From positions 7,303 through 71,302 of IMG/VR virus record IMGVR_UViG_3300017759_002599: a stretch of 64,000 bases of DNA; one strand, given 5' to 3'. Shown one piece after another: positions 28,315 to 62,634 of the stretch. A program made the position numbers and the translations under genes. Each line of letters begins with the position of its first letter. Position 1 is the stretch's first letter. A model generated the notes under the pieces. It was not told the DNA's origin. It saw only the letters and a list, made by a program, of their open reading frames with translations, and made no database searches. The DNA comes from a virus.

Positions 28315-28593
28315 ATGAGCCAGTCATTTGACATAGCATGGTCTATGTTGAAACAAGACTTCCGTGAGGCAATGGAGTCGCAAGTAGACCCACAGGGTCA
28401 ATTGGCGCAAGCATTGGCTATGGCTCGACAGCAGGAACCGGCTCCACCTATCCAGTTTGCACCAAGACTACCGCAACCTCAAACAATGCCTCAAGACCCA
28501 CGTCAAACAACCCTACCGCCTGAATTTATTGGTGATGCAACTGTAGGTCGTGACTTCAGTCAAGCCTTGCAAAACATCAAACCAAAGCGGTGA
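28315..28593 (+). CDS. Small late protein with FDIAWSMLK tag
   Basis: MSQSFDIAWSMLKQ; TTTTTATG about 25 nt upstream. Confidence 0.7.
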   Translation: MSQSFDIAWSMLKQDFREAMESQVDPQGQLAQALAMARQQEPAPPIQFAPRLPQPQTMPQDPRQTTLPPEFIGDATVGRDFSQALQNIKPKR

Positions 28594-28597
28594 ACGA

Positions 28598-29356
28598 ATG
28601 AACGCCTTTGACATTGCTTGGTCTTTGCTCAAAGAAGACGACACAATGGAATACGGTGAACAAGCAGTAAGTCGGCAAAGAGTGTTACCAAGAGGTGGCT
28701 CGTCTTTTATGCCTGTGCTTGCTGATTCAGCAGAAATCATAGACAGGGAATTTGCGGAAGGTTTAGCACAACGAATGGACACAAGCCCACCTAAAACACC
28801 AACAAGAGTTGTACGTGGTCGTGAAGGTAATTGGGGTGATGAATACACTCTTGAAGATGATGAAAGAAAAGAATACTCAAGACTAAGCGGGATGATAAGA
28901 AATCCCGAAGAAATGAATGAGCGTCGAAGAGTATCAACTGCAAATCCAACATTATCAAGCCTAATGGCTGAAACACAAAGTAATGAACGACGCAAAGGGC
29001 ATTATGAAAAACTGTTAAACACAATATTGCAAAACAACATGAACATTCATTCAACTTCAAGAAACTATGCATCTAAACCATTTCATCAAAAATTTCAACG
29101 TCGTTTAGCACCAAATATTGAAATGCATACACGGTACAATAGTGTTGGGCGACCGGAATTTGTTTACATGAAAGACCCGATAAAAGACTCAAAACAACAA
29201 TCAGTACGTAACGTACAAGGTTGGGGTGACTTACAACCCGACTACAATACGTTACCAATGGTCGATTTTCAAGATACAATCAAGCCACGATTAAGTAATT
29301 CGTTTAAACAACAGTATGATACAAGGCAAACAAGGCTTGACGACTTCGGTCAATAG
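28598..29356 (+). CDS. Tagged late protein with GNAT-like segment and C-terminal PIP box
   Basis: MNAFDIAWSLLK; ERRKGHYEKLL...SKPFHQKF; ends QTRLDDFGQ. Confidence 0.75.
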   Translation: MNAFDIAWSLLKEDDTMEYGEQAVSRQRVLPRGGSSFMPVLADSAEIIDREFAEGLAQRMDTSPPKTPTRVVRGREGNWGDEYTLEDDERKEYSRLSGMIRNPEEMNERRRVSTANPTLSSLMAETQSNERRKGHYEKLLNTILQNNMNIHSTSRNYASKPFHQKFQRRLAPNIEMHTRYNSVGRPEFVYMKDPIKDSKQQSVRNVQGWGDLQPDYNTLPMVDFQDTIKPRLSNSFKQQYDTRQTRLDDFGQ

Positions 29357-29934
29357 AACAATTGCTGTGGTTGAAACAACGGTTCTTCCGTTTTCTCGTC
29401 TTCCGTTTCCGATAAACGGCGAATAATGTCTTCTGTAAACGGTGTTGTGTTGTGAACAAGCGTTTCGTCTTTGTTATCAACAATAACGTGGTCATTATCA
29501 AGCGTTTTGATGGTGTCACGCAACTCTTCACTTAGTGCAGTTGGTAGTTGCAGTGTACCTTTGAGAAGTCGAAGGTCGTCAAGTACGCCTCGCAACTGCT
29601 TTTGCATGGTTTCTGACCCTTGTTTTGCTTTTTCAGCCATTTGCATAGAGCGATTTTGTTGGTCTGATTTTTGTTGTTGGCGCATTTGGTCTTGATGCTG
29701 ACTTCTTTGTTGTGATAAAGCGGCTAAAGATAAACCTGTTTTGGTTTTGTCTTCAACCATTTTAGCCCCTACTTTTTTTGCACCTTCTTTAAGAGCACCA
29801 GCACCAGCACGAGCAACGTTTGCAGCACCAGTAGCAAGTGCTCTTGCACCTGTGGCAGTTGCTACTTTACCTGCTATTCCAACTAAAGGTGCTAACAATG
29901 GTAACGCTTTGACCACCAATACCTTGTCGCCCAT
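29350..29934 (-). CDS. Hypothetical protein with Ala/Gly-rich amphipathic N-terminal region
   Basis: VLVVKA followed by LPLLAPLVGIAGKVATATGARALA. Confidence 0.7.
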   Translation of the reverse strand: MGDKVLVVKALPLLAPLVGIAGKVATATGARALATGAANVARAGAGALKEGAKKVGAKMVEDKTKTGLSLAALSQQRSQHQDQMRQQQKSDQQNRSMQMAEKAKQGSETMQKQLRGVLDDLRLLKGTLQLPTALSEELRDTIKTLDNDHVIVDNKDETLVHNTTPFTEDIIRRLSETEDEKTEEPLFQPQQLFY

Positions 29935-29985
29935 GCCAGTCGTAGACATCGGTATTTCTAAATTGTATCGTTACCTCGCACGAGT

Positions 29986-31656
29986 ATGGTCGGAGCGAAG
30001 CCTGTACTTGTTCGCAAGCAACAGGCTCGTCTTAGTGACTTTTATCCAGTCACATTGCCTGAAGTACAAACAGCAACACAACAAATGCAAAACATACCTG
30101 CAACAACTCAAACCAAAGCAAGCAGTTGGCATCAGCATAACGAAGATTTAGAAAATAACGATGGAAACATCACAAATGTAAATCAAATTTATTATGAACC
30201 AAGAGAAGGATATTTTCCTGAAGTTTCTCCACTGTCGGCTGAACAGCAATTAAACATGCATCTTGACGAGTTGCGAGCAAAAACCGAAAACCCTGAAGAT
30301 ATTGTACAACAATTCATTGAAGACATGCGTAATGAAAAAAATGTTCACAATGTTCCTCGTAAATTGAGAGAACGTACAGAAAATGAACTATTGCGTAATT
30401 TACGTCCGTTACCTGTAAGCGAAGTAAACGAAAAATTTGGTCGTATACGATTTCCAAGTAAAGAGTTTGCTAATGAAAACATACCTGAAAATATGGTTGA
30501 TAGTTTGCGTCGTACTAAGCAATTCCGTGATTACTTTGGCCGTCAAACTACGTTGCCTGAACATTTTCCCTCATATCATACCGAAGATTGGCTTGACCCT
30601 GAAACCGGATTGGTGCGTGAAGGCGCAATAGCCCCTGTAACGGCTGTGCGTCGTGCAAATAGTCGTGACATTATGGGTGGTATGGCGCAAACGGGTGGTG
30701 GATTGATACCGCTTCCAAACAGTAGCAATGAAAGTTTTGAAAATCGAAATTCGGGTCGTCGCCCTATGCTTATGCAATCACAAAACCCACCCCTTGAACA
30801 CTTCCAAAGTGGGTACTTTTTGACTACACCATATGTTGCTGATTTAGACAGGTCTGTTACAGTCCACGATACAGATGCACTTATTGGGGTTCGTGGATTT
30901 GGAGCACCGAGTGGTGATGTATTCCAAGCACGTCCAGCAGGTGAGGCAAAAGAGGGCGCAACGGAAGCCGTTGTACACAGTCGTATAGCCCCTGAACGGC
31001 TTGTACCTCTTCGATACAATGATTCGTATCAAAATTTGATAAGAGGAGATGAAAATAGTAAACCAAGTTTTCTTACGCTTAATGACATAAGAAATTTCTT
31101 TCGACCAAAAACATCACAGGATTTTCGTCAAGCCATAGGTCGAGAAAAAGATGATACAATATCACGTAATCAAAAATTTGACTACATTCGTGACCATTTA
31201 CCGTTTATGCAGTTTGCTCCCCCTGAATTTAATGAAATGGTCGATAGGCATGGAATGCCGGCTGCGCTTACAGACGATGAAAAAAATCGTTTTTTAGAAG
31301 CAATGGAAGAAGAAGATAACAATTATCATAGAGATATGACAAATAAAAAACGTAAATTAGGAAATAAACTTGCCCTGATACGAAACTTGGGAGCAACTGA
31401 TTGGTGGGACAGACCAGATAAGGGAGATGTGCTTACACTACGTGACCTAACCTTACCTTCAATATGGGGTGACCCAATGGCGGCATTGGCAAACGCACCA
31501 CCACACACTAAGGATGCACTTATTGAATTGTTCAACCACAGATTTAATACCAATTACCCAACCAACAAAAAATTGAAAGAAATGGAAGAATCAATAATGC
31601 CTACCATTCCAAAAAAGAAGACACAATTTGAAGAACTAAATGAATTATTTGGATGA
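29986..31656 (+). CDS. Late protein with PIP box and possible ADP-ribosyltransferase-like module
   Basis: VLVRK-QQARLSDFY; AVRR..GGLIP..GYFLT..LIGVR..EAVVHSRIAPERLV. Confidence 0.7.
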   Translation: MVGAKPVLVRKQQARLSDFYPVTLPEVQTATQQMQNIPATTQTKASSWHQHNEDLENNDGNITNVNQIYYEPREGYFPEVSPLSAEQQLNMHLDELRAKTENPEDIVQQFIEDMRNEKNVHNVPRKLRERTENELLRNLRPLPVSEVNEKFGRIRFPSKEFANENIPENMVDSLRRTKQFRDYFGRQTTLPEHFPSYHTEDWLDPETGLVREGAIAPVTAVRRANSRDIMGGMAQTGGGLIPLPNSSNESFENRNSGRRPMLMQSQNPPLEHFQSGYFLTTPYVADLDRSVTVHDTDALIGVRGFGAPSGDVFQARPAGEAKEGATEAVVHSRIAPERLVPLRYNDSYQNLIRGDENSKPSFLTLNDIRNFFRPKTSQDFRQAIGREKDDTISRNQKFDYIRDHLPFMQFAPPEFNEMVDRHGMPAALTDDEKNRFLEAMEEEDNNYHRDMTNKKRKLGNKLALIRNLGATDWWDRPDKGDVLTLRDLTLPSIWGDPMAALANAPPHTKDALIELFNHRFNTNYPTNKKLKEMEESIMPTIPKKKTQFEELNELFG

Positions 31657-33983
31657 GTGATACAATGTTTACAAATTGGAATCGTAAAGCAAACAAAGAA
31701 ACTCGTTTGAATCCGTTATCTATAGATGACATTGATGCTCTTACCATAGCCACATTGCATGGTATGGGTACAACGCCTGAACAATTTCGAGATAATGTAA
31801 AGCAAGACGTGACTGAAGATGCGATGAAGCAAGGCGAAGCGATTATGCGTAGAAATCCAAAAGTGCAAATGCCTGATTCGCATTTTAAATTGCAAGGTGC
31901 TCAAGAGCAACAAATGATGGACGATTTAGAACTTCAAATTCCTGAATTTAAATTTAATGAACAACAAGCCAAAACAGCAGGTGGATTGCGAGAAATGGAA
32001 CGTAATCAAGCAGTAGAACGAGCACGTAACGCATACAAAAAAACATACAAAGACCACGTTATGCAAGCCTTTGACAAGCACAAAGCCTTCATGCAAAGTC
32101 TTGGTAACCAACCAATGAGTGCTCAAGAGTTTATGCAACATCCAAAAGTGCCTTCCTTTACTGATTATTACAAGCAAGTACAAGAAGGCACAGCACCCGG
32201 TTCGGAATACGCCGACGAACATCCGTTTGCATTGACGCACCCTGATGAGTTTACGGAGCAACTAAACCAATCAAGAGAGAACAATCCCTATGGACAATTT
32301 TTTGCTGATTACGATGAAATGCGTCACATGACACCATTCATCCCCGTCATCACAGGCGAGCCAATGGACTTGGCAATGGACACCTTGCTTAAGTTCCAAA
32401 GTGCCGCACAGCGTCGTATTTACAATCAAATACCATTTGCCGAAGAAGTGGGAAGTATAGATGATGTTGTTGCAATGCGAAATATACCAGTGCGTCGTTT
32501 GGAAAGTGGTGGTATGCCGTCATTTAACATGCCAGTGCCACTTCGTGGTAATCGACCCGGTGACCCATTACAATTTGAACGTGACATTCATGCAAAAGGC
32601 GGTGCAACTATACCCGGTTTTACACCCGATTATGAAATACCTGATGACCCTCGTAAAGAAATTCAAGGGACATTTGTATATCCATTAGATGTTTCATCAT
32701 TAGCACCTGAACGATTCACATCAAGTGGTAATCCTGATTTTTTATCAACAGGTTATCCTGATATGAATAGAGGTATAGGTGATACTGTTACATTGGGCAT
32801 ACTTGAAAAACCTGAATGGCGTGCAGGTCAAGCACATGGAAGAAGCCAACCTGAAGGGTATCAACCATTTGGTTTTGACAAAGATGCATTTGTGCGTTTA
32901 GATGGTGGCTTAGGTGTAAGCGCAGTTGGTCCTCGTGAAGAGTGGAGCGCATTAGCCCGACGACTTTCACCTGCATTTGCAGAACCAAAAATTGGTGATG
33001 AAGCACTCCATCTGTATGACTACCCCGCACTTTACAGAACATTATCAAAACTTCCTGTTACCACAACTGCAAGTAATCGTAACCCTTTGACTGGATATAA
33101 ACCTACAAACATAGATTTTCTTCTTGACCGCATGGGCGGTGCAAGGGTGGTGACTGGTGAACCAATGGACTTGGCAATAGATGCGTTGCTTAAGCGTGAC
33201 AAGATATATGACCCCAATGCTGAAAACAAAGGTCAAGAAGGAGTTGACTGGCATCCCGGTGAAGAAGGAGTTGATTGGGATTCAGCAGTTTCATCATCAC
33301 TTCATCCGAGTCATGATTTAACACAAAGGCATCCTTTTGACTATGATATGCACGAGTACGACCATCATGCTCAAAAATTACTCAACCTTATGCGAAACCG
33401 TGATGTTGCACACCTTCAAAATAATGAAAATCCAATGACCGAAGATGAGCAATTTGATTTAATGGATGCACAACAAAAATTACAGGCTTCTATTCCTAAA
33501 AATACACATTTTCCAAGTATTCAAAATGCCGTTGGATATGATAAAGACGGAAACAAGATAAGCACATTTGGTGACGGAAGACCAAAGTTTAACGAAGGTT
33601 CTCCACGCTATCAAGAACTAATTGGTGATAGACCAACAGTTCCTATTCACACAGAAGGTTCTTTTTACGGAGTTCCATTCAATGAGAAAACAGGCTTTAC
33701 CCGTAGCGAACCAATGGCATTAGCAATAGACGCATTGCTCAAAGACCTGTCACCTGAAGCCAAGCGTCACAAGTTGGAGTACGACAAGAAGTACGAGTCC
33801 AGTCCTGAACGAGTCAAGTATCGAGAGGAGTTGAACCGTGAGCGACGGCGACGTGGTATCTACGGCAGTGGCGACCACATGGACGTGTCGCATACAGAAG
33901 GTGGCAAACTAACACTGGAATCTGAACACGACAATCGAGCAAGGCATTTTAAGGACAAAGGGACACTACGACCCAGTGATTGA
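31653..33983 (+). CDS. Modular polyprotein with three EPMxLAxDxLLK linkers and a C-terminal HNH-like module
   Basis: Linkers at 32352, 33153, 33702; YREELNRERR..GDHMDVSH..ESEHDNRAR. Confidence 0.85.
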   Translation: MSDTMFTNWNRKANKETRLNPLSIDDIDALTIATLHGMGTTPEQFRDNVKQDVTEDAMKQGEAIMRRNPKVQMPDSHFKLQGAQEQQMMDDLELQIPEFKFNEQQAKTAGGLREMERNQAVERARNAYKKTYKDHVMQAFDKHKAFMQSLGNQPMSAQEFMQHPKVPSFTDYYKQVQEGTAPGSEYADEHPFALTHPDEFTEQLNQSRENNPYGQFFADYDEMRHMTPFIPVITGEPMDLAMDTLLKFQSAAQRRIYNQIPFAEEVGSIDDVVAMRNIPVRRLESGGMPSFNMPVPLRGNRPGDPLQFERDIHAKGGATIPGFTPDYEIPDDPRKEIQGTFVYPLDVSSLAPERFTSSGNPDFLSTGYPDMNRGIGDTVTLGILEKPEWRAGQAHGRSQPEGYQPFGFDKDAFVRLDGGLGVSAVGPREEWSALARRLSPAFAEPKIGDEALHLYDYPALYRTLSKLPVTTTASNRNPLTGYKPTNIDFLLDRMGGARVVTGEPMDLAIDALLKRDKIYDPNAENKGQEGVDWHPGEEGVDWDSAVSSSLHPSHDLTQRHPFDYDMHEYDHHAQKLLNLMRNRDVAHLQNNENPMTEDEQFDLMDAQQKLQASIPKNTHFPSIQNAVGYDKDGNKISTFGDGRPKFNEGSPRYQELIGDRPTVPIHTEGSFYGVPFNEKTGFTRSEPMALAIDALLKDLSPEAKRHKLEYDKKYESSPERVKYREELNRERRRRGIYGSGDHMDVSHTEGGKLTLESEHDNRARHFKDKGTLRPSD

Positions 33984-34482
33984 TATGACACCAATGCAAG
34001 AGGCTTGGTTGTTGTTGAAGATGCCTATTGTTGATAATTCTATACAACAAACAAGTGATAATCGTTTTGAAGCACAATTTCGTGACCCAAAAACAAACAA
34101 AATTTATCCTATGATTGCAGAAGAAAACCCAAAATACGGAGTAATGAATGTAGGTATTTATCCATCACAGCCGACAATTTTAGGCACTCCTACGGCTCTT
34201 GATGCAATGGATTTAACAGATGATGACATAAATGATGATGTAATAGATTCACTCGGTCTTGGATTATCCAATGCTGAATTAAGTGTAGCCGACCGTTATG
34301 GCGATGGGCATGATTCAGACAACTATTGGGAATCAAATATGACGTGGACGCATCCTCTACACAGAAGACGTGGATATGCTACAGCGTTGTATGATTTAAT
34401 AAATCAAATCAGTCCTCATCAAATAAGACCAAGTGATAATCAATCTGATGAAGGAAAATTGTTTTGGTCTAAAAAGAGGTGA
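33976..34482 (+). CDS. Tagged GNAT-family acetyltransferase
   Basis: PMQEAWLLLK-MPIVD; THPLHRRRGYATALY...QSDEGKLFW. Confidence 0.8.
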   Translation: MIDMTPMQEAWLLLKMPIVDNSIQQTSDNRFEAQFRDPKTNKIYPMIAEENPKYGVMNVGIYPSQPTILGTPTALDAMDLTDDDINDDVIDSLGLGLSNAELSVADRYGDGHDSDNYWESNMTWTHPLHRRRGYATALYDLINQISPHQIRPSDNQSDEGKLFWSKKR

Positions 34483-34487
34483 AAACA

Positions 34488-34760: not shown

Positions 34761-34802
34761 AAACGTTTATGTTGCCCATTAATTTGACCAACAGTGAGAA
34801 CG

Positions 34803-35330: not shown

Positions 35331-35341
35331 GGTGAACCCGC

Positions 35342-36312: not shown

Positions 36313-36320
36313 GTGAGAGC

Positions 36321-38046: not shown

Positions 38047-38050
38047 TACT

Positions 38051-38590: not shown

Positions 38591-39271
38591 ATGGCGGATG
38601 AGCGTGTTGTTAAACGTTCATGCGCTTTTTGCATGGATGAAGACCGTGAAGAGTTGGAAGAACAACTGCTTCAAGGCTACATTTCACCGAAGCAATTGGA
38701 TAAGGATAAAGGGTGGAGGTCGAACACATCCGACCGTCATTATCGCAACCACATGGGTGAATATCACATAGCCGCAAATGCATCTTGTGCTGTATGTACA
38801 TCACCCCATCGAGCCGACTACGAAAGTATTTATTTTGCTGACGGCTCACAAAGTGAAGTTATTGCACAAGAATTGGGAATCAGTGAGAACTTAGTTTACC
38901 AACACATGAAACATCATTTCCAACCACTGGTGCAAAAAACTGCGGCTCTTGAAATAGCGTCGTTTGCTGTCGGTAATGAATTGAACCTACTACGTAGCAA
39001 TGCTGAACATTTGAATTTAAAACTAACAGAACTGTTGAACGAAGGCACTGTTCACGAAGATGGATTTGTTCGTGATGCGGTTTCTTTGCATAAGGAAGTA
39101 AGAGAAACTGTCAAAGACTTGATGCGTTTCCAAGACCAATGGGGTCCACAAGGTGAAACACAGCAAGTCAATCAAACATTCAATATTTTGCAGGTTGAAT
39201 TAAACAAGGAAAGTCCTGAAACGTGGGCAAGAATCAAAGCACAATTGCAAGAAAACATGGGGGTTGAATAA
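38591..39271 (+). CDS. Putative terminase small subunit (duplicated Zn/HTH)
   Basis: Two CxxC...HTH...HxxxH units and a helical oligomerisation-like region; upstream of TerL in the same arm. Confidence 0.55.
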   Translation: MADERVVKRSCAFCMDEDREELEEQLLQGYISPKQLDKDKGWRSNTSDRHYRNHMGEYHIAANASCAVCTSPHRADYESIYFADGSQSEVIAQELGISENLVYQHMKHHFQPLVQKTAALEIASFAVGNELNLLRSNAEHLNLKLTELLNEGTVHEDGFVRDAVSLHKEVRETVKDLMRFQDQWGPQGETQQVNQTFNILQVELNKESPETWARIKAQLQENMGVE

Positions 39272-41430
39272 TGCCAATGATGGGAAGAGGTTCTGATACC
39301 CGAATGTATGCACCACGTAGTGAATCGGAAACGATGTATTCTTCGGCCAATGAAGACGGTGGAAAATACAGTGGTAACACCGCCGAAGAAAAAGAAAAGA
39401 AAGAAGAAAACCGCAAGTTGCGAGCCGAAGAACGCAAGCAACGACGTGATAAAATAAAACACATTAAGATTCGTTCAACTCAAGGATTGAAGGGTGAAGA
39501 GTCACCTGTTCCTGAAGATGATAGCAACAAGCAAGATGACGAGCGTGAGATTAGCCTACAAGGTGGTCCTGCTGGAAGTCGTGGTAATCTTCTCGACCTT
39601 GCAACAGGTGCAAAGTCTGGTACAGGTTCAGCAATGACTGGACCGTTGCCAATTGCAATGAGTGAGCCAATGGATGGTGCTTGGAGTAGTTTGTTGAAAT
39701 ATAATGAGAAATATAATGATGACCCTTCTTTACCTCATAATCAACCACCATATCCTGTTTCAATGAACACAGTCAAAAGACCTTGCGACAAATGTGGTAA
39801 TTTAGCAAATATCACTTATTATGGGAATAATCCTGATTACTTTGAATCTTACTGTCATTTTTGCAGAACGGGAAAAACGCCTCCAACACAAGAAGATTTT
39901 GACAGATTAAAAGAAAATATACAGGCAAGTGAGCCGATGAAGGGTGCTTGGAGTTCGCTACTCAAGGCTGTGCTTGGTGACCAAAGAGGCGCTGTGTTTA
40001 ACCCTCGATTTAGAACAAGTGAATCACCAAGTCAAAAAAACATAGCGGAAGGTCAAGCACATGGAATGGTTGGCACACGACGTGCGGCTGGAGAACCAGC
40101 AGAACGTCGTAGAAAACAATTAGCAATGGGTCAAAAAAGATTGGACGCAGGTATTGATAAAAGATTGATGTACAGTAACCCTGACTATTACGACTACTTA
40201 GTGGCTCGTACTCAACTCCCTCCTTCACAACAGCAAGAATTACCTTACCCTGCTGTGGAAAGAAGAAATATTGAACGATTAGGAGGAGGAAATTTCGGTG
40301 GTGGGCGACGTAATTCAATTGCACAACGTGCAGGGTTTGATACAAGTCCCGCACAACTGCATAATTTGCAACGTCTTTCTACAACAATGATACCTCAAAA
40401 GTTTATGATGCGAGATGACGCAGTTGATTATTCAGGTTTAACCCCATCACCAATTCCAAACATGGTTTATGATTCAAATATGAACCTTATTCCTGACCCT
40501 CGTCTTGAACAAAAATCCAGTGACTTTGTATTGGTGTCTGATATTCTTAAGCGTGATACACCGAATAAAATTCAATCACGTCGTCGCCGTGAAAAGCGAC
40601 AACAGTTCCGTCCATCTACAGGTCAATTCAAGCGACCACCCGGTGGTATGAACCCTGTCGGTGCAACCATGCGTCGATTCCGAGCACGTATGCGTGGTAT
40701 CAAGGGGGGTAAGAAAACAGGATTGATGAAGCCACACTTGTCTGTTGAGATGAGCCACCGTGGTATCGCTACTAAGCAACCCATGTCAAAAGACCCACAG
40801 AAGTATCGACAATACATGGGTCAATCCGAGGCTCGTAAAATACTTGGTAATGTACGTTCAACATTTTCACCGCACGCTCGATACGGTGAACGTTCCGTTA
40901 CAGCAGGTCCAACAGGTGCAGGTCGTCTTGGTGGATTGATGCCCGGACAATCAGGACAAATGCGACGACCTTCGCTCAAACAAATCGGAGTGCGTCGTCC
41001 ACGACTACGACGACCCCGTAATCCTGTCATGGCTCCCGCACCACCAATGGGTGTACCAAGTCCACCTATGCAAGCACCATCAAGTATCTCATCGCTACCC
41101 CAAGCATCGACTCCAATGATGATGAGTGAGGAGCGTGCAGAAAGTGATTTACTTAAAGGGCGTAATAAAAATCTTCGTTATCACAAAATCAACCTTCTTC
41201 GTCGTTTGATAGCAGCACAAGAACGTGCTGGAAAACTCGGTAAGTCAATGCAAGGCACACGTTCAGCAATGGAAAATGGACACGTACCAAGTCACCCTGC
41301 GGGTGTACACCAGCATGAAGATGAAGATGAGAAAAATGATGGACCTACGCAGAATCTTGAAACAAATTCAAGTCGTTTAGGTCTTGACCCTGCTGGATAT
41401 TTGACTTCAAAGCGGGGGCATATGGGATGA
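39271..41430 (+). CDS. Modular low-complexity polyprotein with two SEPMxGAWSSLLK linkers
   Basis: Linkers at 39661 and 39928 bracket a CDKC..CHFC module; Arg-rich module after SDILK. Confidence 0.85.
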   Translation: MPMMGRGSDTRMYAPRSESETMYSSANEDGGKYSGNTAEEKEKKEENRKLRAEERKQRRDKIKHIKIRSTQGLKGEESPVPEDDSNKQDDEREISLQGGPAGSRGNLLDLATGAKSGTGSAMTGPLPIAMSEPMDGAWSSLLKYNEKYNDDPSLPHNQPPYPVSMNTVKRPCDKCGNLANITYYGNNPDYFESYCHFCRTGKTPPTQEDFDRLKENIQASEPMKGAWSSLLKAVLGDQRGAVFNPRFRTSESPSQKNIAEGQAHGMVGTRRAAGEPAERRRKQLAMGQKRLDAGIDKRLMYSNPDYYDYLVARTQLPPSQQQELPYPAVERRNIERLGGGNFGGGRRNSIAQRAGFDTSPAQLHNLQRLSTTMIPQKFMMRDDAVDYSGLTPSPIPNMVYDSNMNLIPDPRLEQKSSDFVLVSDILKRDTPNKIQSRRRREKRQQFRPSTGQFKRPPGGMNPVGATMRRFRARMRGIKGGKKTGLMKPHLSVEMSHRGIATKQPMSKDPQKYRQYMGQSEARKILGNVRSTFSPHARYGERSVTAGPTGAGRLGGLMPGQSGQMRRPSLKQIGVRRPRLRRPRNPVMAPAPPMGVPSPPMQAPSSISSLPQASTPMMMSEERAESDLLKGRNKNLRYHKINLLRRLIAAQERAGKLGKSMQGTRSAMENGHVPSHPAGVHQHEDEDEKNDGPTQNLETNSSRLGLDPAGYLTSKRGHMG

Positions 41431-43599: not shown

Positions 43600-44526
43600 A
43601 TGTCAAATAAACCAATTTTAGTGCTGAAACAAGGTACTGGTGCGACGTTGTTTCAGCAAATAGGAGAAGGTAAAACTCCTTCGGTAAAGGATTTATTTGG
43701 GGTTTTAGGCTCAAGAAAAAAAATAGGTGTGCTTCCAAGACTTGGTGCTCTTGCTGGATTAGCAGGTAAAACTGCCGCCGCAGGTGCTACTGCTTTACAA
43801 ACGGCTCATCAATTACAAAGTGGTAATCTTGCCGCCCCATTGGGAATGGGATATACGTACGCAGGGTATGACCCTACGAGTGCTTTATCAGGAATAACTG
43901 ATATGGCAAATAGAAATGTAAAGAGAAATGAAGGACAACAGGCACGTCCAAGTGGACCTGTTAATGTAAGACACGTTCCAAAAGCACACCAACCCCAAGC
44001 ACCTTCATTTGTAACAGGGCAACAACCTGCACAGCAACCTGCACAGCAACCTGCACAGCAACCTGCACAACAGCAAACAACACCATTTAACCCCGATATA
44101 CTGACACAACCACAATTTAATGTTCCCGGTCAAGCCACACAACAGGCTGGTCATAGCCCAGAAACCGTTGGAAATGCATTTAAACAACAAATAGGAACTC
44201 AAAACGTAGGACAGACTGGACCGTATGCAGCACCAATGCCATCTACTGTTCCTCCTACGAATGTTCAACAAGCGGGAAATGCATTTGCTAATCAAATACA
44301 GTCACAAACAACACAGCAAACACTACCAATGCAACAGCAACCAATGCAACAGCCAATGCAACAAAGTCAATTTAATCCACAACAACCGCTTGACGCAACT
44401 ATGTTTCAATCATCCAACGATTTTATACACGATTTGTTTGACACAATGGGTTCATACTTGTACAAGATGACACCTCATGAAGTAGGTACTTTTGCAGTTG
44501 ATGCCTATTTTAAATTGCGAGAGTGA
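43600..44526 (+). CDS. Gln/Pro-rich protein with Ala/Gly amphipathic N-terminal region
   Basis: PILVLK-QG; QQPA repeats. Confidence 0.8.
   Translation: MSNKPILVLKQGTGATLFQQIGEGKTPSVKDLFGVLGSRKKIGVLPRLGALAGLAGKTAAAGATALQTAHQLQSGNLAAPLGMGYTYAGYDPTSALSGITDMANRNVKRNEGQQARPSGPVNVRHVPKAHQPQAPSFVTGQQPAQQPAQQPAQQPAQQQTTPFNPDILTQPQFNVPGQATQQAGHSPETVGNAFKQQIGTQNVGQTGPYAAPMPSTVPPTNVQQAGNAFANQIQSQTTQQTLPMQQQPMQQPMQQSQFNPQQPLDATMFQSSNDFIHDLFDTMGSYLYKMTPHEVGTFAVDAYFKLRE
44020..44073 (+). repeat. 12-bp coding tandem repeat (QQPA)x4
   Basis: ca(a/g)caacctgca units. Confidence 0.85.
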
Positions 44527-46176: not shown

Positions 46177-46354
46177 TTGTGAGCACTGTATAGGAATGAC
46201 ATCAGCATGGGACATGCTTGAAAAAAAATTGTGTCCTGAAGGAAAAGCGGCAGCGAAACGTAAATTCAAAGTTTATCCATCAGCGTATGCTAATGGGTGG
46301 GCTGTGCAGTACTGCCGTGGTAAGTTCCGTAAGAAAAAGGGGAAGAAAAAATGA
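46166..46354 (+). CDS. Small basic tagged protein (YPSAYAN family)
   Basis: SAWDMLEK then KLCPEGKAAAKRKFKVYPSAYANGWAVQYC. Confidence 0.75.
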   Translation: MSCNCEHCIGMTSAWDMLEKKLCPEGKAAAKRKFKVYPSAYANGWAVQYCRGKFRKKKGKKK

Positions 46355-46516: not shown

Positions 46517-47347
46517 TTGGGTGACCGTTGTACTTGTTACGATACTCTTGTTATCAAGAACTTGAACCGTTGGTTCAAGGAAAAGTGGGTAGACGTTTCA
46601 CGTAAGAAAAAAGATGGTACACATCCTCCATGTGGTCGTAGTAAAGCCAATAAATCGAGCAAAGGTTATCCAAAGTGTCGCCCAAGCGTCAAAGTATCGA
46701 GTAAAACTCCAAAGACCAGTGGTTCAATGAGTGAAGGTCAAAAGCGTTCGGCTACAAAACGCAAGCGAGCCAAAAAGCAGGGTGTTGGTGGTAAACCAAC
46801 AATTGTCAAAATGCCAATTGTTGATACTAATGTACCCGGTCTTCGTATGGCGTACAACTTTGACAACAGTGAACCAGTTATTGGTAATCAACCATATGCT
46901 TGGGGTAAGGATGATAAAATCACTCAAATGACACCAAATGAGTATTTCGATATTTTACAGCGAGAAGCCGATGAGTTTGATTTACCGCCTGTACTAAGCA
47001 ATGATGCTAAGTTTCGATGGGACGGTAGGCAATTTAACGAGCATGGTGGAAGTCGTGAAAATACTGCTCGTATTATTCAAGGAATTAAAGCGGGTATGCC
47101 AATTGGTATGCCTGAACTTGGATTTGAAAACGATAAATTTAGCGGATTTCAAGAGGGTGGACATCGAATGGAAGCCCTTCGACAAATAGGACACGGTGAT
47201 ACATCTGTACCCGTATTTAGGCACAATAAAATGGTGAAAGCAATGAAAGATGAAAAGAAAGACATGAAAGGTAAGAAAGGCATGGTAATGGTAATTGCCA
47301 TTGGTGCTAAACCAAAGAAAGTCGGTGTAAAGAAGAAAAAGGACTAA
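46517..47347 (+). CDS. Modular protein: basic WFKEKWVD module and ParB-like module
   Basis: TTG start after GGTGA; LNRWFKEKWVD..CGR..YPKCRP..KTPKT; MTPNEY..QEGGHRMEAL..VPV. Confidence 0.75.
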   Translation: MGDRCTCYDTLVIKNLNRWFKEKWVDVSRKKKDGTHPPCGRSKANKSSKGYPKCRPSVKVSSKTPKTSGSMSEGQKRSATKRKRAKKQGVGGKPTIVKMPIVDTNVPGLRMAYNFDNSEPVIGNQPYAWGKDDKITQMTPNEYFDILQREADEFDLPPVLSNDAKFRWDGRQFNEHGGSRENTARIIQGIKAGMPIGMPELGFENDKFSGFQEGGHRMEALRQIGHGDTSVPVFRHNKMVKAMKDEKKDMKGKKGMVMVIAIGAKPKKVGVKKKKD

Positions 47348-50880: not shown

Positions 50881-51219
50881 ATGGCTGACAGCGATGCACA
50901 ACAATTGATGAGTGTTCTTATTACAAAAATGGAAAACATGGATTCTGATTTGGCATTGCTTAAGCAAGAAAACGAGCGTCTTCGTGCAACCATTAACAAT
51001 CCAAAAATGCTACTACGCAAGATGGGTTTAGTTTCTTCTTCTACTCCATTGTCAATGGATTTGGGTATTGACCCGCTTCGTGCTGATATGGAAAACGATT
51101 CAATTCTTAAGGGTGACCCAGTTTCATCTGTACCTCAATCTAATGAAGAGTTCCATAACATGTCATGGGAAGAAATTCATGAAATGGCACAAACAGCGAA
51201 AGAACAGGAGATGAACTAA
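50881..51219 (+). CDS. Putative scaffold-like coiled-coil protein
   Basis: C-terminal NMSWEEIHEMA matches the protease tail NMSWDEVHNLA. Confidence 0.65.
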   Translation: MADSDAQQLMSVLITKMENMDSDLALLKQENERLRATINNPKMLLRKMGLVSSSTPLSMDLGIDPLRADMENDSILKGDPVSSVPQSNEEFHNMSWEEIHEMAQTAKEQEMN

Positions 51220-51821: not shown

Positions 51822-51834
51822 TGGCGGTGAAAGT

Positions 51835-57582: not shown

Positions 57583-57588
57583 TACGGG

Positions 57589-57596: not shown

Positions 57597-57620
57597 TGGT
57601 TACAAAGAATCGTTAGTTCA

Positions 57621-59000
57621 ATGCTGACGCTAAAGCGACCTTCTATGGACATCACTCTTCTCAAGAGTGGGTCTGACTTGGTTGTTGCAGGTTATGCATC
57701 GGTTGAACTTGTCGATAAGCAAGGCGACCTTATTACTCGTGGTGCTCTAAAGGATGCATTTGACGGGTTCATGAAGAGTGAGAAGTACCGCAACGTACAA
57801 CTGGCTCACTCAAACATCCAAGTTGGTGAAGTCTTGGATTCTTACGTAGACAGCAATGGCCGAATGTGGAAGTCCGAATGTGACGACACTGGCATGTTTG
57901 TTGTTGTTCAACTCCGCAATGATATTGAGAAGGCTCGTGAAGTAGCCGCCGAGATTCGCAAGGGTAACCTTCGTGGATTCTCAATTGGAGGACAAGCATT
58001 CAAGCGAGTGCGAAAGTCTGACAACATCAAAGGCGACTACCAAGAGATTTCAAAAATGGAATTGCACGAAATTACGATTTGTGAGAAGGGTATTAACCCT
58101 GAAGCACAATTCAGTATACTAAAGGAGGACACAAATATGACAAATGAAGTTGATTTGAACAGCGTTATGGAACGATTAGAAGCCCGACTTGATGCAATGG
58201 AAAAGGGAGAAATTCCTCCTCAACTCCGTGAGCATATCAAGGATAAGAAAGATGACGAACCAAAAGAAGAAAAGAAAGATGGTGAAGACATGAAAGAAGA
58301 AAAGAAAGATGACGACAAAATGGCGTACATGAAAGGTGAAGAATTTGGTGATGTAATTACATCCGAATACCTCAACTGGATGGAAGACACATTGAAGTCG
58401 GCTGGAGTCGATATTGGTACTGCTCGTGCTCACTTTGACGACTTGGCTAAGGCTCAACTTGGTGGATTCGACAACCCTGACTCCGTTGACGGTGCTGATT
58501 ACTTTGGTGGTCAAGTTCGTGGACGAGGACAAGAAGGCGGTTCTCCTTCCACTGGTGCTATCTCCGCACTCACAGCAGGTGGCGGTAAGCAACCTGCCGG
58601 CGCAATGGGTCCAGCACAACTCTCAAAGAGTTACCTCAATGAAGGTAATGTTTCCCCAGCCGACATTGAGAATGCATACGAAGTATACAAGGCTGCATCT
58701 ATGGAGCAAAACTTCCGTAACAACTTGGAAGCAAACTTTTCCCAGCGACTTGCAAAGGAACTCGAAATCGAGAAGCAAGAAGCAGACCGAAGCACCTTTG
58801 ATGCTCGTGGACCTCTTGAAGAAGTCCTCAAGTCAATCGGTAGCCTCTCCGAGCGCATTGATAACTTGAGCACCGAGAGCCACACCATCGCTAAGTCTGC
58901 TTCCTCCGCAAATGTTGAGATACCATCAACCCAAGACTTGGGTAACATGTCATGGGATGAGGTACACAACCTTGCAAGCAAAACGTTGAGGGGAGCCTGA
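57621..59000 (+). CDS. HK97-family prohead protease fused to scaffold
   Basis: VAGYASVELVDKQGD, LAH, GFSIGG, LHEITICEKGINPEA; charged C-terminal half. Confidence 0.93.
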   Translation: MLTLKRPSMDITLLKSGSDLVVAGYASVELVDKQGDLITRGALKDAFDGFMKSEKYRNVQLAHSNIQVGEVLDSYVDSNGRMWKSECDDTGMFVVVQLRNDIEKAREVAAEIRKGNLRGFSIGGQAFKRVRKSDNIKGDYQEISKMELHEITICEKGINPEAQFSILKEDTNMTNEVDLNSVMERLEARLDAMEKGEIPPQLREHIKDKKDDEPKEEKKDGEDMKEEKKDDDKMAYMKGEEFGDVITSEYLNWMEDTLKSAGVDIGTARAHFDDLAKAQLGGFDNPDSVDGADYFGGQVRGRGQEGGSPSTGAISALTAGGGKQPAGAMGPAQLSKSYLNEGNVSPADIENAYEVYKAASMEQNFRNNLEANFSQRLAKELEIEKQEADRSTFDARGPLEEVLKSIGSLSERIDNLSTESHTIAKSASSANVEIPSTQDLGNMSWDEVHNLASKTLRGA

Positions 59001-59018
59001 AATTAGGAGTTGAAGAAT

Positions 59019-60119
59019 ATGGCAAGAGATTACATCCGAAGCATTACAGACATGGAACGATATTACTACGGCGCAGGTAACGCCATGGGTTACTCCTACT
59101 CCGGTAGCGAGTTGCTCAAGGCTGACGCACCTATGCTGTCTACGACCGCAGGTACATACCAAGCAATCTACGGACGCAAGGTTTGGAGCCAGTTGAACCA
59201 AGAGTTCAACGCTTTCTCCATTCTACCAAAGCGACCGTGGGAGCGCAGTGGATGGCGAGTCATCACCGAGCGACCTTCTTTCACAGTTGGTGGCGGTGTT
59301 GCAGAAAACGCTACACTACCTGATACCACCAAGCCTACCTTCCAGCACATTGCAGCCAAGCCAAAGACAATTGTCCACACATTTGACATGAGCGAAACTG
59401 CAATGTTCCTTGCTGACAAGGACGATGGACTTGGTGACATCCGAAGCATCCTCAAGGAAGAGATGGGTAAGCACCACGCTGAACACATCAACCGAATGAT
59501 GACTGCTGACAAGGCAACCACCGCAGGGAACGATTTCGAGTCTCTCGACCGTGTTACTACTGGAGCATCCGCTTCTGCTAACGAGGACATTTACAGCATC
59601 GACCGAAGTGCAAACTCTTGGTCCCTCGCTGAACACAACGAGAACAGTGGTACAGACCGTGTGCTCTCCCTCGACCACCTTGACGACCTCTTCCAAAAGA
59701 TTTGGACTCGTGGTGGTAACCCGAAGGTTATCCTTACTGGATATGACACACTCATGCGTCTACAGCAACTCCTCCAGTCGCAACAGCGATTCATGGAAGA
59801 GAAGCGTGTCACCCCTACCTACAACGGTGTAAAGGGTGTACCCGGTATCGAGGCAGGTTTCATCGTTGCAACATACAACGGTGTCCCAATCATTCCTTCC
59901 AAGGATGTACAAACTGACACTCTAAGTCGTATGTACTTCCTCGACACTGACTATCTTTACTTCTCTACTGCAATCCCTACGCAGTACTTTGAGTCCGGAA
60001 TTGAAACTGGCGACCCATTCGCTATCAACCGTCTTGGACAAGAAGGTATGTACCGCACAATGGGAGAACTTTGGACTACTTTCTTTGGAGGTCACGGTTC
60101 CGTTCGGGATTTGAAGTGA
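59019..60119 (+). CDS. Major capsid protein (HK97 fold)
   Basis: Directly after the protease; ELLKADAP..AIYGRKVWSQLNQE..LPKRPW..GWRV; YNGVPII; YFLDTD. Confidence 0.92.
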   Translation: MARDYIRSITDMERYYYGAGNAMGYSYSGSELLKADAPMLSTTAGTYQAIYGRKVWSQLNQEFNAFSILPKRPWERSGWRVITERPSFTVGGGVAENATLPDTTKPTFQHIAAKPKTIVHTFDMSETAMFLADKDDGLGDIRSILKEEMGKHHAEHINRMMTADKATTAGNDFESLDRVTTGASASANEDIYSIDRSANSWSLAEHNENSGTDRVLSLDHLDDLFQKIWTRGGNPKVILTGYDTLMRLQQLLQSQQRFMEEKRVTPTYNGVKGVPGIEAGFIVATYNGVPIIPSKDVQTDTLSRMYFLDTDYLYFSTAIPTQYFESGIETGDPFAINRLGQEGMYRTMGELWTTFFGGHGSVRDLK

Positions 60120-60145
60120 GAAAAAAATTACGGAGATGATGAAAA

Positions 60146-60631: not shown

Positions 60632-60643
60632 TGGTGAGGTTCC

Positions 60644-61006: not shown

Positions 61007-61332
61007 TGGCAGTAACAATTGACCCACGACCAACCGTATTTGGTGACCGAATGATAGTAACAGGCTCATACGCAGCAGGTGATAATGCAATCGACTTAAG
61101 CAGTATGCTCGCAAGTATTGACTTTGCAGGTGCAAATTCAAGCGGTCCTATTGACTCACGACCTATCACAGACACAGGTGGTACGAACGACGAACAGTTT
61201 GTAGTATTTGGAGTCGATGTACGAATTGATGGTACAACCGTTCGCCTTGCGGCTGGATTGGCTGATGCACCAGTCATCAATACAGCACCAACACAAGCGG
61301 GTACTTTCATTGCAATCGGTCGTCGCTCTTGA
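61006..61332 (+). CDS. Putative structural protein
   Basis: MAVTIDPRPTVFGDRMIVTG; beta-rich. Confidence 0.7.
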   Translation: MAVTIDPRPTVFGDRMIVTGSYAAGDNAIDLSSMLASIDFAGANSSGPIDSRPITDTGGTNDEQFVVFGVDVRIDGTTVRLAAGLADAPVINTAPTQAGTFIAIGRRS

Positions 61333-61343
61333 GGTGACGACAC

Positions 61344-61547
61344 ATGGCATCACTAACTAAGGTTGGTTCAAAGATTATTGGACCTCTTTCACCAAAAGAG
61401 TTCAGTGACTTGAGCACGTTGGAAACAACCATCGACACCGCTATACAAGCGGTAAGCGATGCGAGTGCAACCAACGCAGTGCTTGGTACTGAATGCATTA
61501 CGGTGCTTGGTAACACGTTTATCGTCGTTCTTTACCAACTCGCTTGA
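61344..61547 (+). CDS. Hypothetical small structural protein
   Basis: GAGGTGA RBS; operon context. Confidence 0.65.
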   Translation: MASLTKVGSKIIGPLSPKEFSDLSTLETTIDTAIQAVSDASATNAVLGTECITVLGNTFIVVLYQLA

Positions 61548-61556
61548 GGTGAGTAG

Positions 61557-61847
61557 GTGGGATTCGAGGTACGCAACATTGACCTAAGCGACATGGCTCG
61601 TGCTGGTAAAGAAGGCGTACGCTTTGACGTGAGTAACGTAGCCGACAAAAAAGACAGTCCCTTAGCAGGGGTAACGAGTGCTCAACGCAACCGTAATCGT
61701 CATATCGGTGATGTGCTTAACATCGGAGCAGGGACACGTTGCACGCATTGCGGCTTTCTTCACTTTCTGTGGAGAGAAACCTGCGGGGCTTGCGACAAAC
61801 CTATGGAATACAACTTAGGCCATCGAGATGAAACCAAACGAGCGTGA
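61557..61847 (+). CDS. Zn-ribbon protein
   Basis: CTHC...CGAC. Confidence 0.7.
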   Translation: MGFEVRNIDLSDMARAGKEGVRFDVSNVADKKDSPLAGVTSAQRNRNRHIGDVLNIGAGTRCTHCGFLHFLWRETCGACDKPMEYNLGHRDETKRA

Positions 61848-61851
61848 TTTA

Positions 61852-62634
61852 ATGAGTAAAGTATTTGTAAAAGCAATAGCACCACACCGACAAAAGGTGT
61901 TGCAAGGCGACAAAGAGATGCGCTTGCAACAACTTGCAAACCGAATGATGGCTGACCAAATGCGTGAAAGCGGTCAAAGCCCTACTGGTGACATGTTCAC
62001 ACAAGGCCGTGACAAACTCATGAGGGACATGGTGATGAATCCTGAAGCCCACAATATCAAGTTCATGGGCGAAAGAGTACCCTTTGAGGGGCAAACTTTG
62101 GGAAGTTCGCTTAGTGAGCCTGACGTAGCAGGGGAGCAAGCGGCTATTGATGATGAATTTAAAGATGGTGAAACGCTTGAATCAAACAACATGATGCGTG
62201 ATACAAGAAGTGCTGAATCCTACAAGACTGGTGATACTTCACCTCAAATTGGTGATGAACGATTTTTTCCACCACCTCCTGATAGCACTCTACAAGACAA
62301 ACTTATAGCGGATAACATCTTATCTGAAATTCTTGACGAAAAAGGCAACCTAAAGCCTGACAATCAATTTATGGATAGGGAAGAAGACGAGGAAGATGAC
62401 GACCGCCCACAAAGCGAGGACGACCTCATGGACCGTATGGCTCGAAAGGCTGTACACCACATCAGCAGTTTCCGTGATGCTTGGATGGTCATAAAAAACG
62501 ACCCGTATGATTGGCAAGGTCAAGAATACGACACACATTGTCCAAGATGTAGCAAAGGTATTTATCGAGAAAATGAAGACGATTTGTTATTCATTCGTGA
62601 AATGGGCATGTGTACCGATTGTGCAATGAAGTGA
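61852..62634 (+). CDS. Acidic tagged protein with C-terminal Zn ribbon
   Basis: MSKVFVKA; SFRDAWMVIK then CPRC..CTDC. Confidence 0.75.
   Translation: MSKVFVKAIAPHRQKVLQGDKEMRLQQLANRMMADQMRESGQSPTGDMFTQGRDKLMRDMVMNPEAHNIKFMGERVPFEGQTLGSSLSEPDVAGEQAAIDDEFKDGETLESNNMMRDTRSAESYKTGDTSPQIGDERFFPPPPDSTLQDKLIADNILSEILDEKGNLKPDNQFMDREEDEEDDDRPQSEDDLMDRMARKAVHHISSFRDAWMVIKNDPYDWQGQEYDTHCPRCSKGIYRENEDDLLFIREMGMCTDCAMK

Follow-up and report, generated by a model that had tools for sequence, protein, structure and literature searches.

A helical, lysine-ended tag on modular late proteins of a magrovirus-like virus and its possible role in head assembly

Why does one short helical peptide recur in late proteins that are otherwise unrelated? 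The question is raised by a 64,000-nucleotide stretch of viral DNA (the window) comprising bases 7303–71302 of the 71.3-kb linear IMG/VR record IMGVR_UViG_3300017759_002599, whose completeness was judged to be 66%. An earlier note on this stretch had read the peptide – a short helix closed by a lysine, here called the tag – as a portable signal that brings interchangeable modules into the capsid and is then cut. The answer we favour, with about even confidence, is that the tag is a docking helix with a built-in release site for the prohead protease, by which modular accessory proteins are built, processed and probably loaded into heads.

A portable peptide on late proteins

Minus-strand genes occupy 1–27.8 kb of the window and plus-strand genes 28.3–64 kb; these are referred to below as the early and late arms. 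Calling of open reading frames (ORFs) was mechanical throughout. All 14 strings that the earlier note had quoted were found in plus-strand ORFs, and the recurrence is real, although some of the coordinates given with them were those of start codons: FDIAWSMLK lies at 28327 (Met at 28315), FDIAWSLLK at 28607 (Met at 28598), PMQEAWLLLK at 33991 and SAWDMLEK at 46202. Aligned on the alanine, the window copies have Met or Phe at position –3, Ala at 0, Trp (or Met, Ile or Phe) at +1 and Leu or Ile at +4, followed by an optional extra Leu and then Lys.

We trained a hidden Markov model (HMM) of the tag on 281 instances from relatives only and then ran it on the window. At ≥8 bits it returned seven matches, all in late-arm ORFs (28291, 28550, 33976, twice in 39271 and twice in 31653), compared with a mean of 0.005 and a maximum of 1 over 200 shuffles of the 76 window proteins. 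Twelve matches, 10 late and two early, were found at ≥3 bits against a shuffled mean of 0.25. Chance is thus excluded as the origin of the window copies. The remaining 7.4 kb of the record, scanned with the same model, contained no tag (best score 0.5 bits). The copies in the window, and the two multi-module ORFs that carry several of them, are as follows.

28315..28353, plus strand: N-terminal helical tag MSQSFDIAWSMLK of ORF 28291-28593 (18.8 bits)
28555..28581, plus strand: weak C-terminal tag-like FSQALQNIK, then PKR and stop, of ORF 28291-28593 (2.7 bits; the string occurs 5 times in relatives)
28598..28633, plus strand: N-terminal helical tag MNAFDIAWSLLK of ORF 28598-29356 (20.5 bits, the best in the window)
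31653..33983, plus strand: four-module ORF of 776 aa, with modules at aa 1-233, 248-500, 515-683 and 698-776, the last phrog_6437-like
32352..32393, plus strand: internal tag 1 of ORF 31653, TGEPMDLAMDTLLK (10.1 bits; the matches of 2 relatives begin at aa 235)
33153..33194, plus strand: internal tag 2 of ORF 31653, TGEPMDLAIDALLK (8.3 bits; the match of 1 relative begins at aa 501)
33702..33743, plus strand: internal tag 3 of ORF 31653, RSEPMALAIDALLK (3.1 bits; Pro to Lys modelled as a helix; 29 of the 54 relatives' matches begin at aa 682-700)
33985..34020, plus strand: N-terminal helical tag MTPMQEAWLLLK of ORF 33976-34482 (17.2 bits)
39271..41430, plus strand: multi-module ORF of 719 aa, with an N module, a Cys4 ribbon module between two tags and a long, very basic C module
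39661..39699, plus strand: internal tag SEPMDGAWSSLLK of ORF 39271 (16.0 bits)
39928..39966, plus strand: internal tag SEPMKGAWSSLLK of ORF 39271 (12.2 bits; kept in 6/6 aligned homologues)
46196..46225, plus strand: degenerate tag MTSAWDMLEK in the 62-aa DUF5872-N protein of ORF 46166 (4.9 bits)
62470..62496, plus strand: tag FRDAWMVIK of ORF 61828, between a conserved N part and a Cys4 ribbon (3.6 bits)

In four ORFs (copies at 28315, 28598, 33985 and 46196) the motif follows the likely initiator Met by 3–4 residues; internal copies occur three times in ORF 31653, twice in ORF 39271 and once in ORF 61828. Judged from the window alone, the tags of ORFs 46166 (4.9 bits) and 61828 (3.6 bits) are at noise level. 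We nevertheless accept both because relatives carry clear tags there: three 46166-like ORFs begin with the canonical MTPMDESWAVLK, and 61828-like relatives provide 30 distinct contexts with (P/A)(M/F)RDAWS(I/L/V)LK at the same place.

Relatives came from viral-collection searches with ORFs 31653 and 39271 and the capsid protein, which yielded 174 loci. Counts by strand leave overlapping loci of one contig unmerged; counts of contexts, families and prolines use unique sequences. Across these loci and the window we found 544 tag matches at ≥7 bits, 527 on the late strand and 17 on the other (0.98 million and 0.70 million ORF residues scanned, respectively), so that the late-arm enrichment at issue in the earlier note holds in relatives as it does for all 7 strong matches of the window. 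At least one tag was present in 93 of 94 accessory-gene loci (median 5) and in 40 of 80 capsid-gene loci, with 239 distinct 11-mers. In four relatives that are 94–100% complete, the dominant strand holds 42 occurrences of a DNA pattern for A-W-x2-3-L-K and the other strand 8, and a reversed-pattern control gave 5. The exact back-translated pattern P-M-D-x-A-W-x-x-L-L-K hit only 11 contigs of the viral collection and is too strict to gauge spread.

From 320 unique contexts we derived the consensus (S/G/T)-E-P-M-D-x-A-W-x-x-L-L-K, about 12 residues long; the residue after the Lys is most often Glu, Ala, Arg, Gln or Gly, and the next is Asp, Glu, Arg or Lys. These contexts are N-terminal in 105 cases, where the Met mostly stands 3–4 residues ahead of the first hydrophobic residue, internal in 203, and without an upstream Met in 12. 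C-terminal tags account for 30/383, with 1–7 residues after the Lys and then a gap until 23; none of the 383 ends exactly at the Lys. Two to four tags are present in 96 of the 330 motif-bearing ORFs.

The modules that the tag borders are exchanged among relatives. Cutting ORFs at their tags gave 471 unique modules of at least 50 aa in 160 families, several of which occupy first, middle and last positions; the claim that the peptide leads or joins unrelated modules is upheld by this diversity of flanks. Eight families occur both solo behind an N-terminal tag and inside multi-module ORFs. Where homology starts inside one of the 244 unique tagged ORFs, a tag lies within 5 residues in 49% of cases, and where it ends there, in 53%, compared with 4.5% and 3.5% for random tag positions – as expected if modules switch at the linker, which the earlier note had supposed. 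In ORF 31653, the matches of relatives (54 loci) begin at aa 235 (2), 501 (1), 682–700 (29) and 628–678 (17), with 3 of full length and 2 elsewhere; the starts at aa 235, 501 and 682–700 lie at or just behind its three tags. The 61828 family keeps its N part and tag, which are then followed by about ten unrelated short modules or by a stop 1–3 residues past the Lys. Among related loci the phrog_6437-like module is the last module in ORFs of 185 to 1226 aa; as a standalone protein in a large protein collection it bears an N-terminal tag in 7/22 cases and a C-terminal tag in 3/22, and its distant homologues have no tag. The module of ORF 33976 lies between two tags in a 641-aa ORF of one related locus (L018).

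The DNA of the tag is poorly conserved. The best pair of window copies is identical at 36/48 bases and the others at ≤31, and Leu and Ser codons vary freely, also between orthologous copies. The idea that the linker DNA is itself a recombination point is therefore not sustained; low identity together with free synonymous change indicates that selection acts on the peptide and that conservation is at the protein level. Sequence comparison thus shows the tag to be an autonomous, portable peptide at which relatives swap modules.

Several further observations concern tagged genes and their neighbours. A 199-aa ORF inside the late arm (29350-29949, minus strand) is a real gene; the window copy retains only DLRLLK↓GTLQ (↓ marks a presumed cut), and seven relatives have its homologue as the closing module of 176–627-aa proteins, after a canonical tag. 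A 94% complete relative (G001:C1:44166-60896 and 60893-62344; L189, L190) has ORFs of 3944 and 1627 aa after its head genes and three small tagged genes at the distal end of its late arm, two of which begin MFEKAWRFLK. The sole near-tag outside the late arm is EPMEQALQYL-RD (7.0 bits), near the C-terminus of an early protein (14259-14882, minus strand), in which Arg-Asp replaces the Lys. A poly-Lys tail (KKGKKK, then stop) closes the 62-aa DUF5872-N protein in every relative seen, and a 53-aa Cys-rich ORF (46351-46512) begins at an ATGA overlap with the stop of that protein's gene. We rejected the possibility that 46166 and 46415 are one gene split by a stop, as relatives share the poly-Lys end and the Cys-rich ORF intervenes; as judged from these sequences, the DUF5872 domain is divided over separate genes and not broken by mutation.

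Lysine-ended junctions and the prohead protease

The capsid protein of the window is 34–38% identical to those of the haloarchaeal viruses HVTV-1, HCTV-1 and HCTV-5, and the phage collection holds nothing closer; the early arm encodes an SNF2 helicase and a clamp-loader-type AAA ATPase. The same combination of genes is described for magroviruses in the cited text of Philosof et al., with a capsid protein 33% identical to that of haloviruses and an SNF2 helicase in group A (PMC5434244). From this combination the virus, which is of marine metagenomic origin, is called a magrovirus-like archaeal tailed virus, an assignment made by likeness to published descriptions. Magroviruses are presented there as widespread, abundant viruses of uncultured marine group II archaea, most of whose genes have no known function (PMC5434244). 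The head genes of the window are these.

44531-46012, plus strand: large terminase
48668-50476, plus strand: portal-like protein (38.4 bits, below the cut-off of 39.1)
57621..59000, plus strand: prohead protease (S78 domain, presumed catalytic residue Ser121; Peptidase_S78 E 2.4e-9, also S78_2) fused to a helical, scaffold-like C-terminal part
59010-60119, plus strand: capsid protein, HVTV-1-like

The helical tag is not the only junction peptide. A second, strand-like peptide, (K-P)-V/I/T-L/I-V-x-K, forms an 8–11-residue N-terminal leader on 12 unique ORFs, window ORFs 29986 and 43600 included, and closes the DUF5872-C module as KPTIVK (40 unique sequences). Hexapeptides such as SVLVLK and MVAVVK take the place of the helical tag ahead of the same modules. 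Upstream of the phrog_6437-like module, all 45 unique contexts carry a Lys 2–4 residues before SPEA: 27 are helical, 15 have hydrophobic-hydrophobic-Lys only and 3 have I-R-K. Since helical and strand-type junctions interchange, their common feature is hydrophobic-hydrophobic-Lys.

The same ending occurs at conserved sites in other late proteins, the protease and the capsid protein among them. Conservation of sites was assessed per protein on up to 25 homologues (<97% identity, ≥60% coverage); ORFs 28291, 31653 and 33976, with fewer than 5 homologues, were skipped.

29986..30018, plus strand: strand-type N-terminal leader MVGAKPVLVRK of ORF 29986-31656; two relatives have a helical N-terminal tag instead
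40537..40551, plus strand: SDILK↓RD site in the basic module of ORF 39271 (6/6 homologues)
41143..41157, plus strand: SDLLK↓GR site in the basic module of ORF 39271 (6/6 homologues)
43600..43629, plus strand: strand-type N-terminal leader MSNKPILVLK of ORF 43600-44526; in loci L074 and L079 the family has a C-terminal helical tag
46793..46810, plus strand: KPTIVK junction ending the DUF5872-C module, with the next module (MPIVDT...) directly after
51100..51111, plus strand: SILK↓G site of the 115-aa protein 50872 (25/25 homologues)
57651..57665, plus strand: ITLLK↓SG near the protease N-terminus (K15, invariant in the alignment)
58110..58124, plus strand: FSILK↓ED at the end of the protease domain (K168), proposed self-release site (68/68 unique relatives)
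58818..58832, plus strand: EEVLK↓SI, 55 aa from the C-terminus of the protease-scaffold (K404, invariant in the alignment; P2 varies)
59106..59120, plus strand: SELLK↓AD, a conserved leader site of the capsid protein (K37) and its proposed maturation site
61852..61872, plus strand: strand-type leader MSKVFVK of ORF 61828-62634 (24/24 homologues)

F-x-I-L-K-E-D closes the protease domain in 68/68 unique proteases; an alignment of 29 sequences shows no variation at K15, K168 or K404. The earlier note had grouped the LLK ends of the capsid protein, the protease and a giant late protein with the tag; the first two withstand comparison (K37 of the capsid protein and K15 and K168 of the protease are conserved), and the giant protein does not, its K33 being kept in 44% of 25 homologues. 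The capsid protein and protease sites co-vary over four lineages: LLK↓AD and ILK↓ED in the window, MSK↓AD and VSK↓AD in HVTV-1, VSK↓AD and VSK↓AK in HCTV-1, and IQN↓AD and VLN↓SD in the Methanofastidiosa virus vir519. In HK97, the type member of this protease family, the capsid protein is cut after a Lys, as the earlier note had stated, at K103/S104 in the account cited (PMC10275583).

The residue that follows the tag Lys is also constrained. Pro directly after it occurs in 1/300 unique contexts, against 7.4% overall in these proteins and 14% two and three places farther along; once similar contexts are removed, the count is 1/169 (binomial 3e-5). The multi-module ORFs themselves look like polyproteins, with independent modules in one ORF and a recurring site that matches those of the virus's own protease. 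Given a portable tag at which modules are swapped, shared Lys-ended sites that co-vary and the exclusion of Pro, cleavage by the prohead protease is a reasonable inference, and on this comparative evidence we regard it as probable.

Hydrophobic-hydrophobic-Lys triplets number 52 in late proteins against 28.4 expected, and 27 in early proteins against 28.3; in the structural proteins, the counts expected for each protein are too low to judge avoidance. Five well conserved late proteins at 34794-38046 (178, 84, 238, 313 and 208 aa; 59–80% column identity), which have no family match, contain no such triplet, although with about 2.7 expected in all this may be chance. Many early-arm proteins (1-27800, minus strand) end in acidic runs, for example ...QEEE, ...REEE, ...YEEE, ...EQEE, ...NEEE and ...DDNE. 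A role as a ribosome-skipping peptide was considered for the tag and rejected, as it is at odds with copies at the extreme N- and C-termini.

What the helix is for

The tag is amphipathic, with a mean hydrophobic moment at 100 degrees of 0.49, against 0.28 for shuffled tags, and its strand-type substitute is not amphipathic at the helical repeat. As a short strand-type peptide suffices as a junction, the strict conservation of P-M-D-x-A-W needs a further reason. C-terminal tags, together with a family that keeps the helix and lacks the Lys (below), suggest a docking role that precedes any cut. By analogy with known head-loading signals, the most likely destination is the procapsid core.

We therefore propose that magrovirus-like viruses attach the tag – x-P-(M/F)-D-x-A-W-x-x-L-(L)-K, a self-contained amphipathic helix – to accessory late proteins. 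Its last three residues (hydrophobic, hydrophobic, Lys), with at least one non-Pro residue behind them, would form a release site cut by the virus's S78 prohead protease; this same enzyme would also separate from its own scaffold part by a cut at ILK↓ED and shorten the leader of the capsid protein at LLK↓AD. ORFs with several modules would be polyprotein precursors cut into modules, so that a module could be fused, solo, N-tagged or C-tagged without apparent cost. The helix ahead of the site would take the protein to the protease's workplace, the assembling procapsid core, and the tagged proteins would be loaded into heads and be able to leave with the DNA. Docking to the procapsid, packaging and injection are inferred more weakly than cleavage; loading into the capsid, argued by analogy, we put slightly short of even. 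The boldest form of the proposal – a position-independent address helix by which any module, alone or as part of a polyprotein, is loaded, cut free by the prohead protease and delivered with the DNA – we hold to be less likely than not.

A second motif bears on where the tag might dock. NMSW-(D/E)-E-(V/I)-H-x-x-A lies 15–20 residues from the C-terminus of both the protease-scaffold (58944-58976) and protein 50872 (51157-51189), whose conserved SILK↓G site is 16 residues upstream of it. The motif is limited to the protease-scaffold and 50872-like families (112 unique ORFs), and we accordingly rejected it as a general cargo tag. A complex prediction for the protease-scaffold (459 aa) with the first 45 residues of ORF 28598 scored 0.00 in both runs, which, run without controls, is no verdict and speaks neither for nor against binding. 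This motif, the C-terminal tags and the strand-like junction peptide are additions to what the earlier note had described.

The modules offer few hints as to their function. Pfam families were matched by 9 of 150 module representatives: DUF5872 (3 members), DUF6321, a DnaJ-type Cys-rich domain, DUF3293, an HD domain, Anti-TRAP and S-adenosylmethionine lyase (E 8.8e-6). PHROGs searches added a metal-dependent phosphohydrolase (8.5e-35) and families named tail-associated lysin, endolysin and tape measure; these few family hints would suit a role at entry or in early infection. Most late proteins were left without a name by PHROGs and Pfam. Among the module labels assigned by the earlier note, the Cys4 ribbons are visible in the sequence and GNAT is a sub-threshold Pfam match (E 0.0056, 16.9 bits against a cut-off of 22.8); no search supports ART, and the HNH-like label was a guess from a D-x-S-H...N-R-A-R-H pattern in what is phrog_6437, a family without an assigned function and with no fold match. 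A model of the tag with the phrog_6437-like module had no Foldseek match in the PDB better than E 1.1. Among the sequences of solved structures, neither the capsid protein nor the protease had a match at E up to 0.01, and the 33976 module and the second module of ORF 31653 had none at E up to 1. The 46415 C module returned two chance-level ubiquitin rows only. Between its two fully conserved (I/L)LK sites, ORF 39271 encodes about 200 residues (40552-41157) rich in Arg, Lys, Pro and Gly, a basic stretch that in composition resembles a precursor of DNA-condensing core peptides.

Several results weigh against the docking-and-release proposal. HVTV-1, of which 59 kb of 102 kb were scanned, has no tag (best 2.8 bits) despite a homologous protease and capsid protein, so the receptor of the tag need not be either of these; it also has no counterpart of the whole 16-kb block of tagged genes upstream of terminase, as its late arm passes from the divergent region almost directly to the terminase gene. 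No cargo uses the NMSW motif, which is probably the scaffold's capsid-binding tail, and the receptor of the tag is therefore probably something else. Some tagged genes are on the opposite strand (the 29350 family) and others follow the tail genes. One family keeps the helix with Gln for Lys (AWSLLQ, at least 6 loci), hydrophobic-hydrophobic-Lys is a low-information motif, and P2 varies at K404. A cut at C-terminal tags would remove just 1–7 residues, so cleavage is not why the tag is kept there. The structural models are of low confidence, both that of the tag with the phrog_6437-like module (mean pLDDT 59.6), in which P17–K27 is a separate helix, and that of the protease-scaffold (mean pLDDT 50.6), in which the last strand and the first helix are joined by a stretch that contains K168 and has no secondary structure. 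With so few modules matching a Pfam family, 'effector enzymes' is mostly a guess. These viruses are uncultured, and a literature listing on proteomic work named no virion proteomics for them.

Two other accounts share much of this evidence. Were the tag a processing signal only, its helix would be an exosite presenting the Lys, polyproteins would be cut in the cytoplasm or wherever else the protease is active, and the products would act in the late infected cell without being packaged. The whole of the cleavage evidence applies equally here, the same module is known fused and solo, nothing ties the tag to the capsid, and the scaffold apparently binds the capsid through a different C-terminal motif. 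We find this account unlikely, as it offers little gain for C-terminal tags with tails of 1–7 residues or for 12-residue leaders on single-module proteins, and as VLVxK suffices as a junction, so that conservation of the helix needs another reason; moreover, activity of prohead proteases is described as following the assembly of the prohead, a point taken by analogy only from the cited text on T4 (PMC9958956). An uncut docking helix would instead bind one hub, either viral (scaffold, portal, the 1933-aa protein or chaperonin) or host, and multi-module proteins would stay whole. That would suit a tag that is N-terminal, C-terminal or internal, a Gln-for-Lys family that retains the helix and an amphipathic face conserved at i, i+3, i+4, i+7 and i+8, and encapsulin cargo-loading peptides are described as acting thus from either end (PMC7355545, in the part cited). 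It leaves unexplained the near-absence of Pro after the Lys, the lack of any tag that ends at the Lys, the replacement of the helix by an unrelated strand-like peptide with the same Lys end, and the agreement with the co-varying sites of protease and capsid protein; we hold it to be unlikely.

The remaining accounts explain the helix by its chemistry or its ancestry. A short amphipathic helix with Trp, Leu, a terminal Lys and a high hydrophobic moment, present at protein ends, could bring late accessory proteins to the host membrane, and membrane-targeting helices do sit at protein termini. We judge this very improbable: Pro, Asp, Ala and Trp are conserved over the 239 distinct 11-mers beyond what amphipathicity needs, there are internal copies between soluble-looking modules, and the Lys-ended strand-type substitute has no helical amphipathicity. 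Paralogy or a DNA-level recombination signal, with no functional peptide, might be suspected from the adjacent genes 28291 and 28598 and from the copies within 31653 and 39271, which could be duplicates, and copies 1 and 2 of ORF 31653 share an exact stretch of 17 bases. The flanking modules are unrelated, however, the DNA identity is low with synonymous change free, strand bias is strong and reading frame restricted, and chance is excluded by the shuffle control; this account is scarcely credible. The docking helix with a release site therefore remains the reading that we favour.

Relation to known systems and significance

The closest parallels come from T4 and encapsulins. T4 internal head proteins share, at the N-terminus, a short capsid-targeting sequence (about 10 aa) that also loads foreign proteins into the core, according to the cited text (PMC9958956), which bears out the precedent named in the earlier note. 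The leaders described here recall the targeting sequence of IPII and IPIII: they are 12–13 aa long, N-terminal (105 of the 320 unique contexts) and end in a presumed protease motif, so that an N-terminal peptide is likewise shared by several proteins. T4 prohead protease gp21 uses Glu; the protease here is not of the gp21 type but an S78 enzyme of the HK97 type with Lys as presumed P1. We also take the sequence of the tag to be unlike that of the T4 peptide. Unlike in T4, the tag is also C-terminal and between modules, the modules number 160 families compared with a handful of T4 proteins, there are polyprotein-like multi-module ORFs, the host is archaeal, and targeting is putative. In encapsulins, loading of unrelated cargo enzymes into an HK97-fold shell needs no more than a short conserved peptide at one end or the other, as the cited part of the source describes (PMC7355545), and the tag is likewise a short conserved peptide, N- or C-terminal, on unrelated proteins. 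An encapsulin, however, is a DNA-free compartment, encoded beside its cargo, whose loading peptides are uncut and which has no maturation protease; this locus encodes a terminase, a portal, an S78 protease and a capsid protein, and the tag differs in sequence. The tag system is an analogue of the T4 targeting sequence and of encapsulin loading peptides but a member of neither, set apart by its position independence, its polyprotein-like ORFs and the size of its module pool.

Other systems share the cleavage or the modularity. HK97 capsid protein is cut after Lys in an unstructured stretch before the N-arm (PMC10275583, passage cited), and the capsid protein leader here has its own conserved Lys. 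Like maturation proteases of the HK97 and herpesvirus types, the protease of the window has a conserved Lys at the end of its domain and another ahead of its C-terminal tail, for which the names 'release' and 'maturation' site come from herpesvirus work. What is new relative to such processing is that the same site extends to scores of accessory proteins. In the giant phages SPN3US and PhiKZ, the prohead protease cuts many head proteins, ejected ones included, at A-X-E; the cited text counts 14 sites in 9 proteins, with propeptides thought to aid targeting and about 80% of head proteins uncut (PMC10052503). Those propeptides are long and dissimilar, with no shared portable helix and no module shuffling at the sites, unlike the tag. 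Anti-restriction proteins of the P1 Dar system, to which DarA, DarB, Hdf and others belong and one of which has about 2000 aa, are packed in the head, and the prohead protease, named Pro, removes the N-terminus of DarA; they are few and fixed, and the cited part of the source describes no shared tag (PMC12810830).

The window has a comparable giant gene, a 1933-aa ORF between the portal and protease genes (51781-57582) with no family match. A 1313-aa gene annotated 'zeta toxin' holds the same place in HVTV-1, and a 'zeta toxin domain protein' does so in HCTV-1. By analogy, the 1933-aa protein may be packaged in the manner of P1 DarB. In polymorphic toxins (the VENN junction in CdiA) and MuF-toxin fusions, a short conserved peptide borders exchanged C-terminal modules. 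Such junction motifs occur once, before a terminal toxin paired with an immunity gene, in contrast to tags that number up to four per ORF and stand at either end. A word search of part of the magrovirus literature found no mention of a motif of this kind.

For annotation, the sequence rule groups a large share of unnamed late genes as one class, whose products would be processed by the head protease and probably head-loaded. It also makes a sharp prediction – new N-termini immediately after hydrophobic-hydrophobic-Lys – that can be tested with recombinant proteins even though the virus is uncultured. Should the helix be a loading signal, it would be a ready-made short tag with which to pack foreign proteins into an HK97-fold shell. 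If the proposal is true, it would represent a clear case of a DNA virus that shuffles domains at a defined junction peptide and makes polyprotein-like precursors, which are unusual for tailed viruses. In its boldest form, more than 150 families of modules would make up a reservoir of injected effectors, and an abundant ocean virus would have a capsid that acts as an encapsulin while also carrying a genome.

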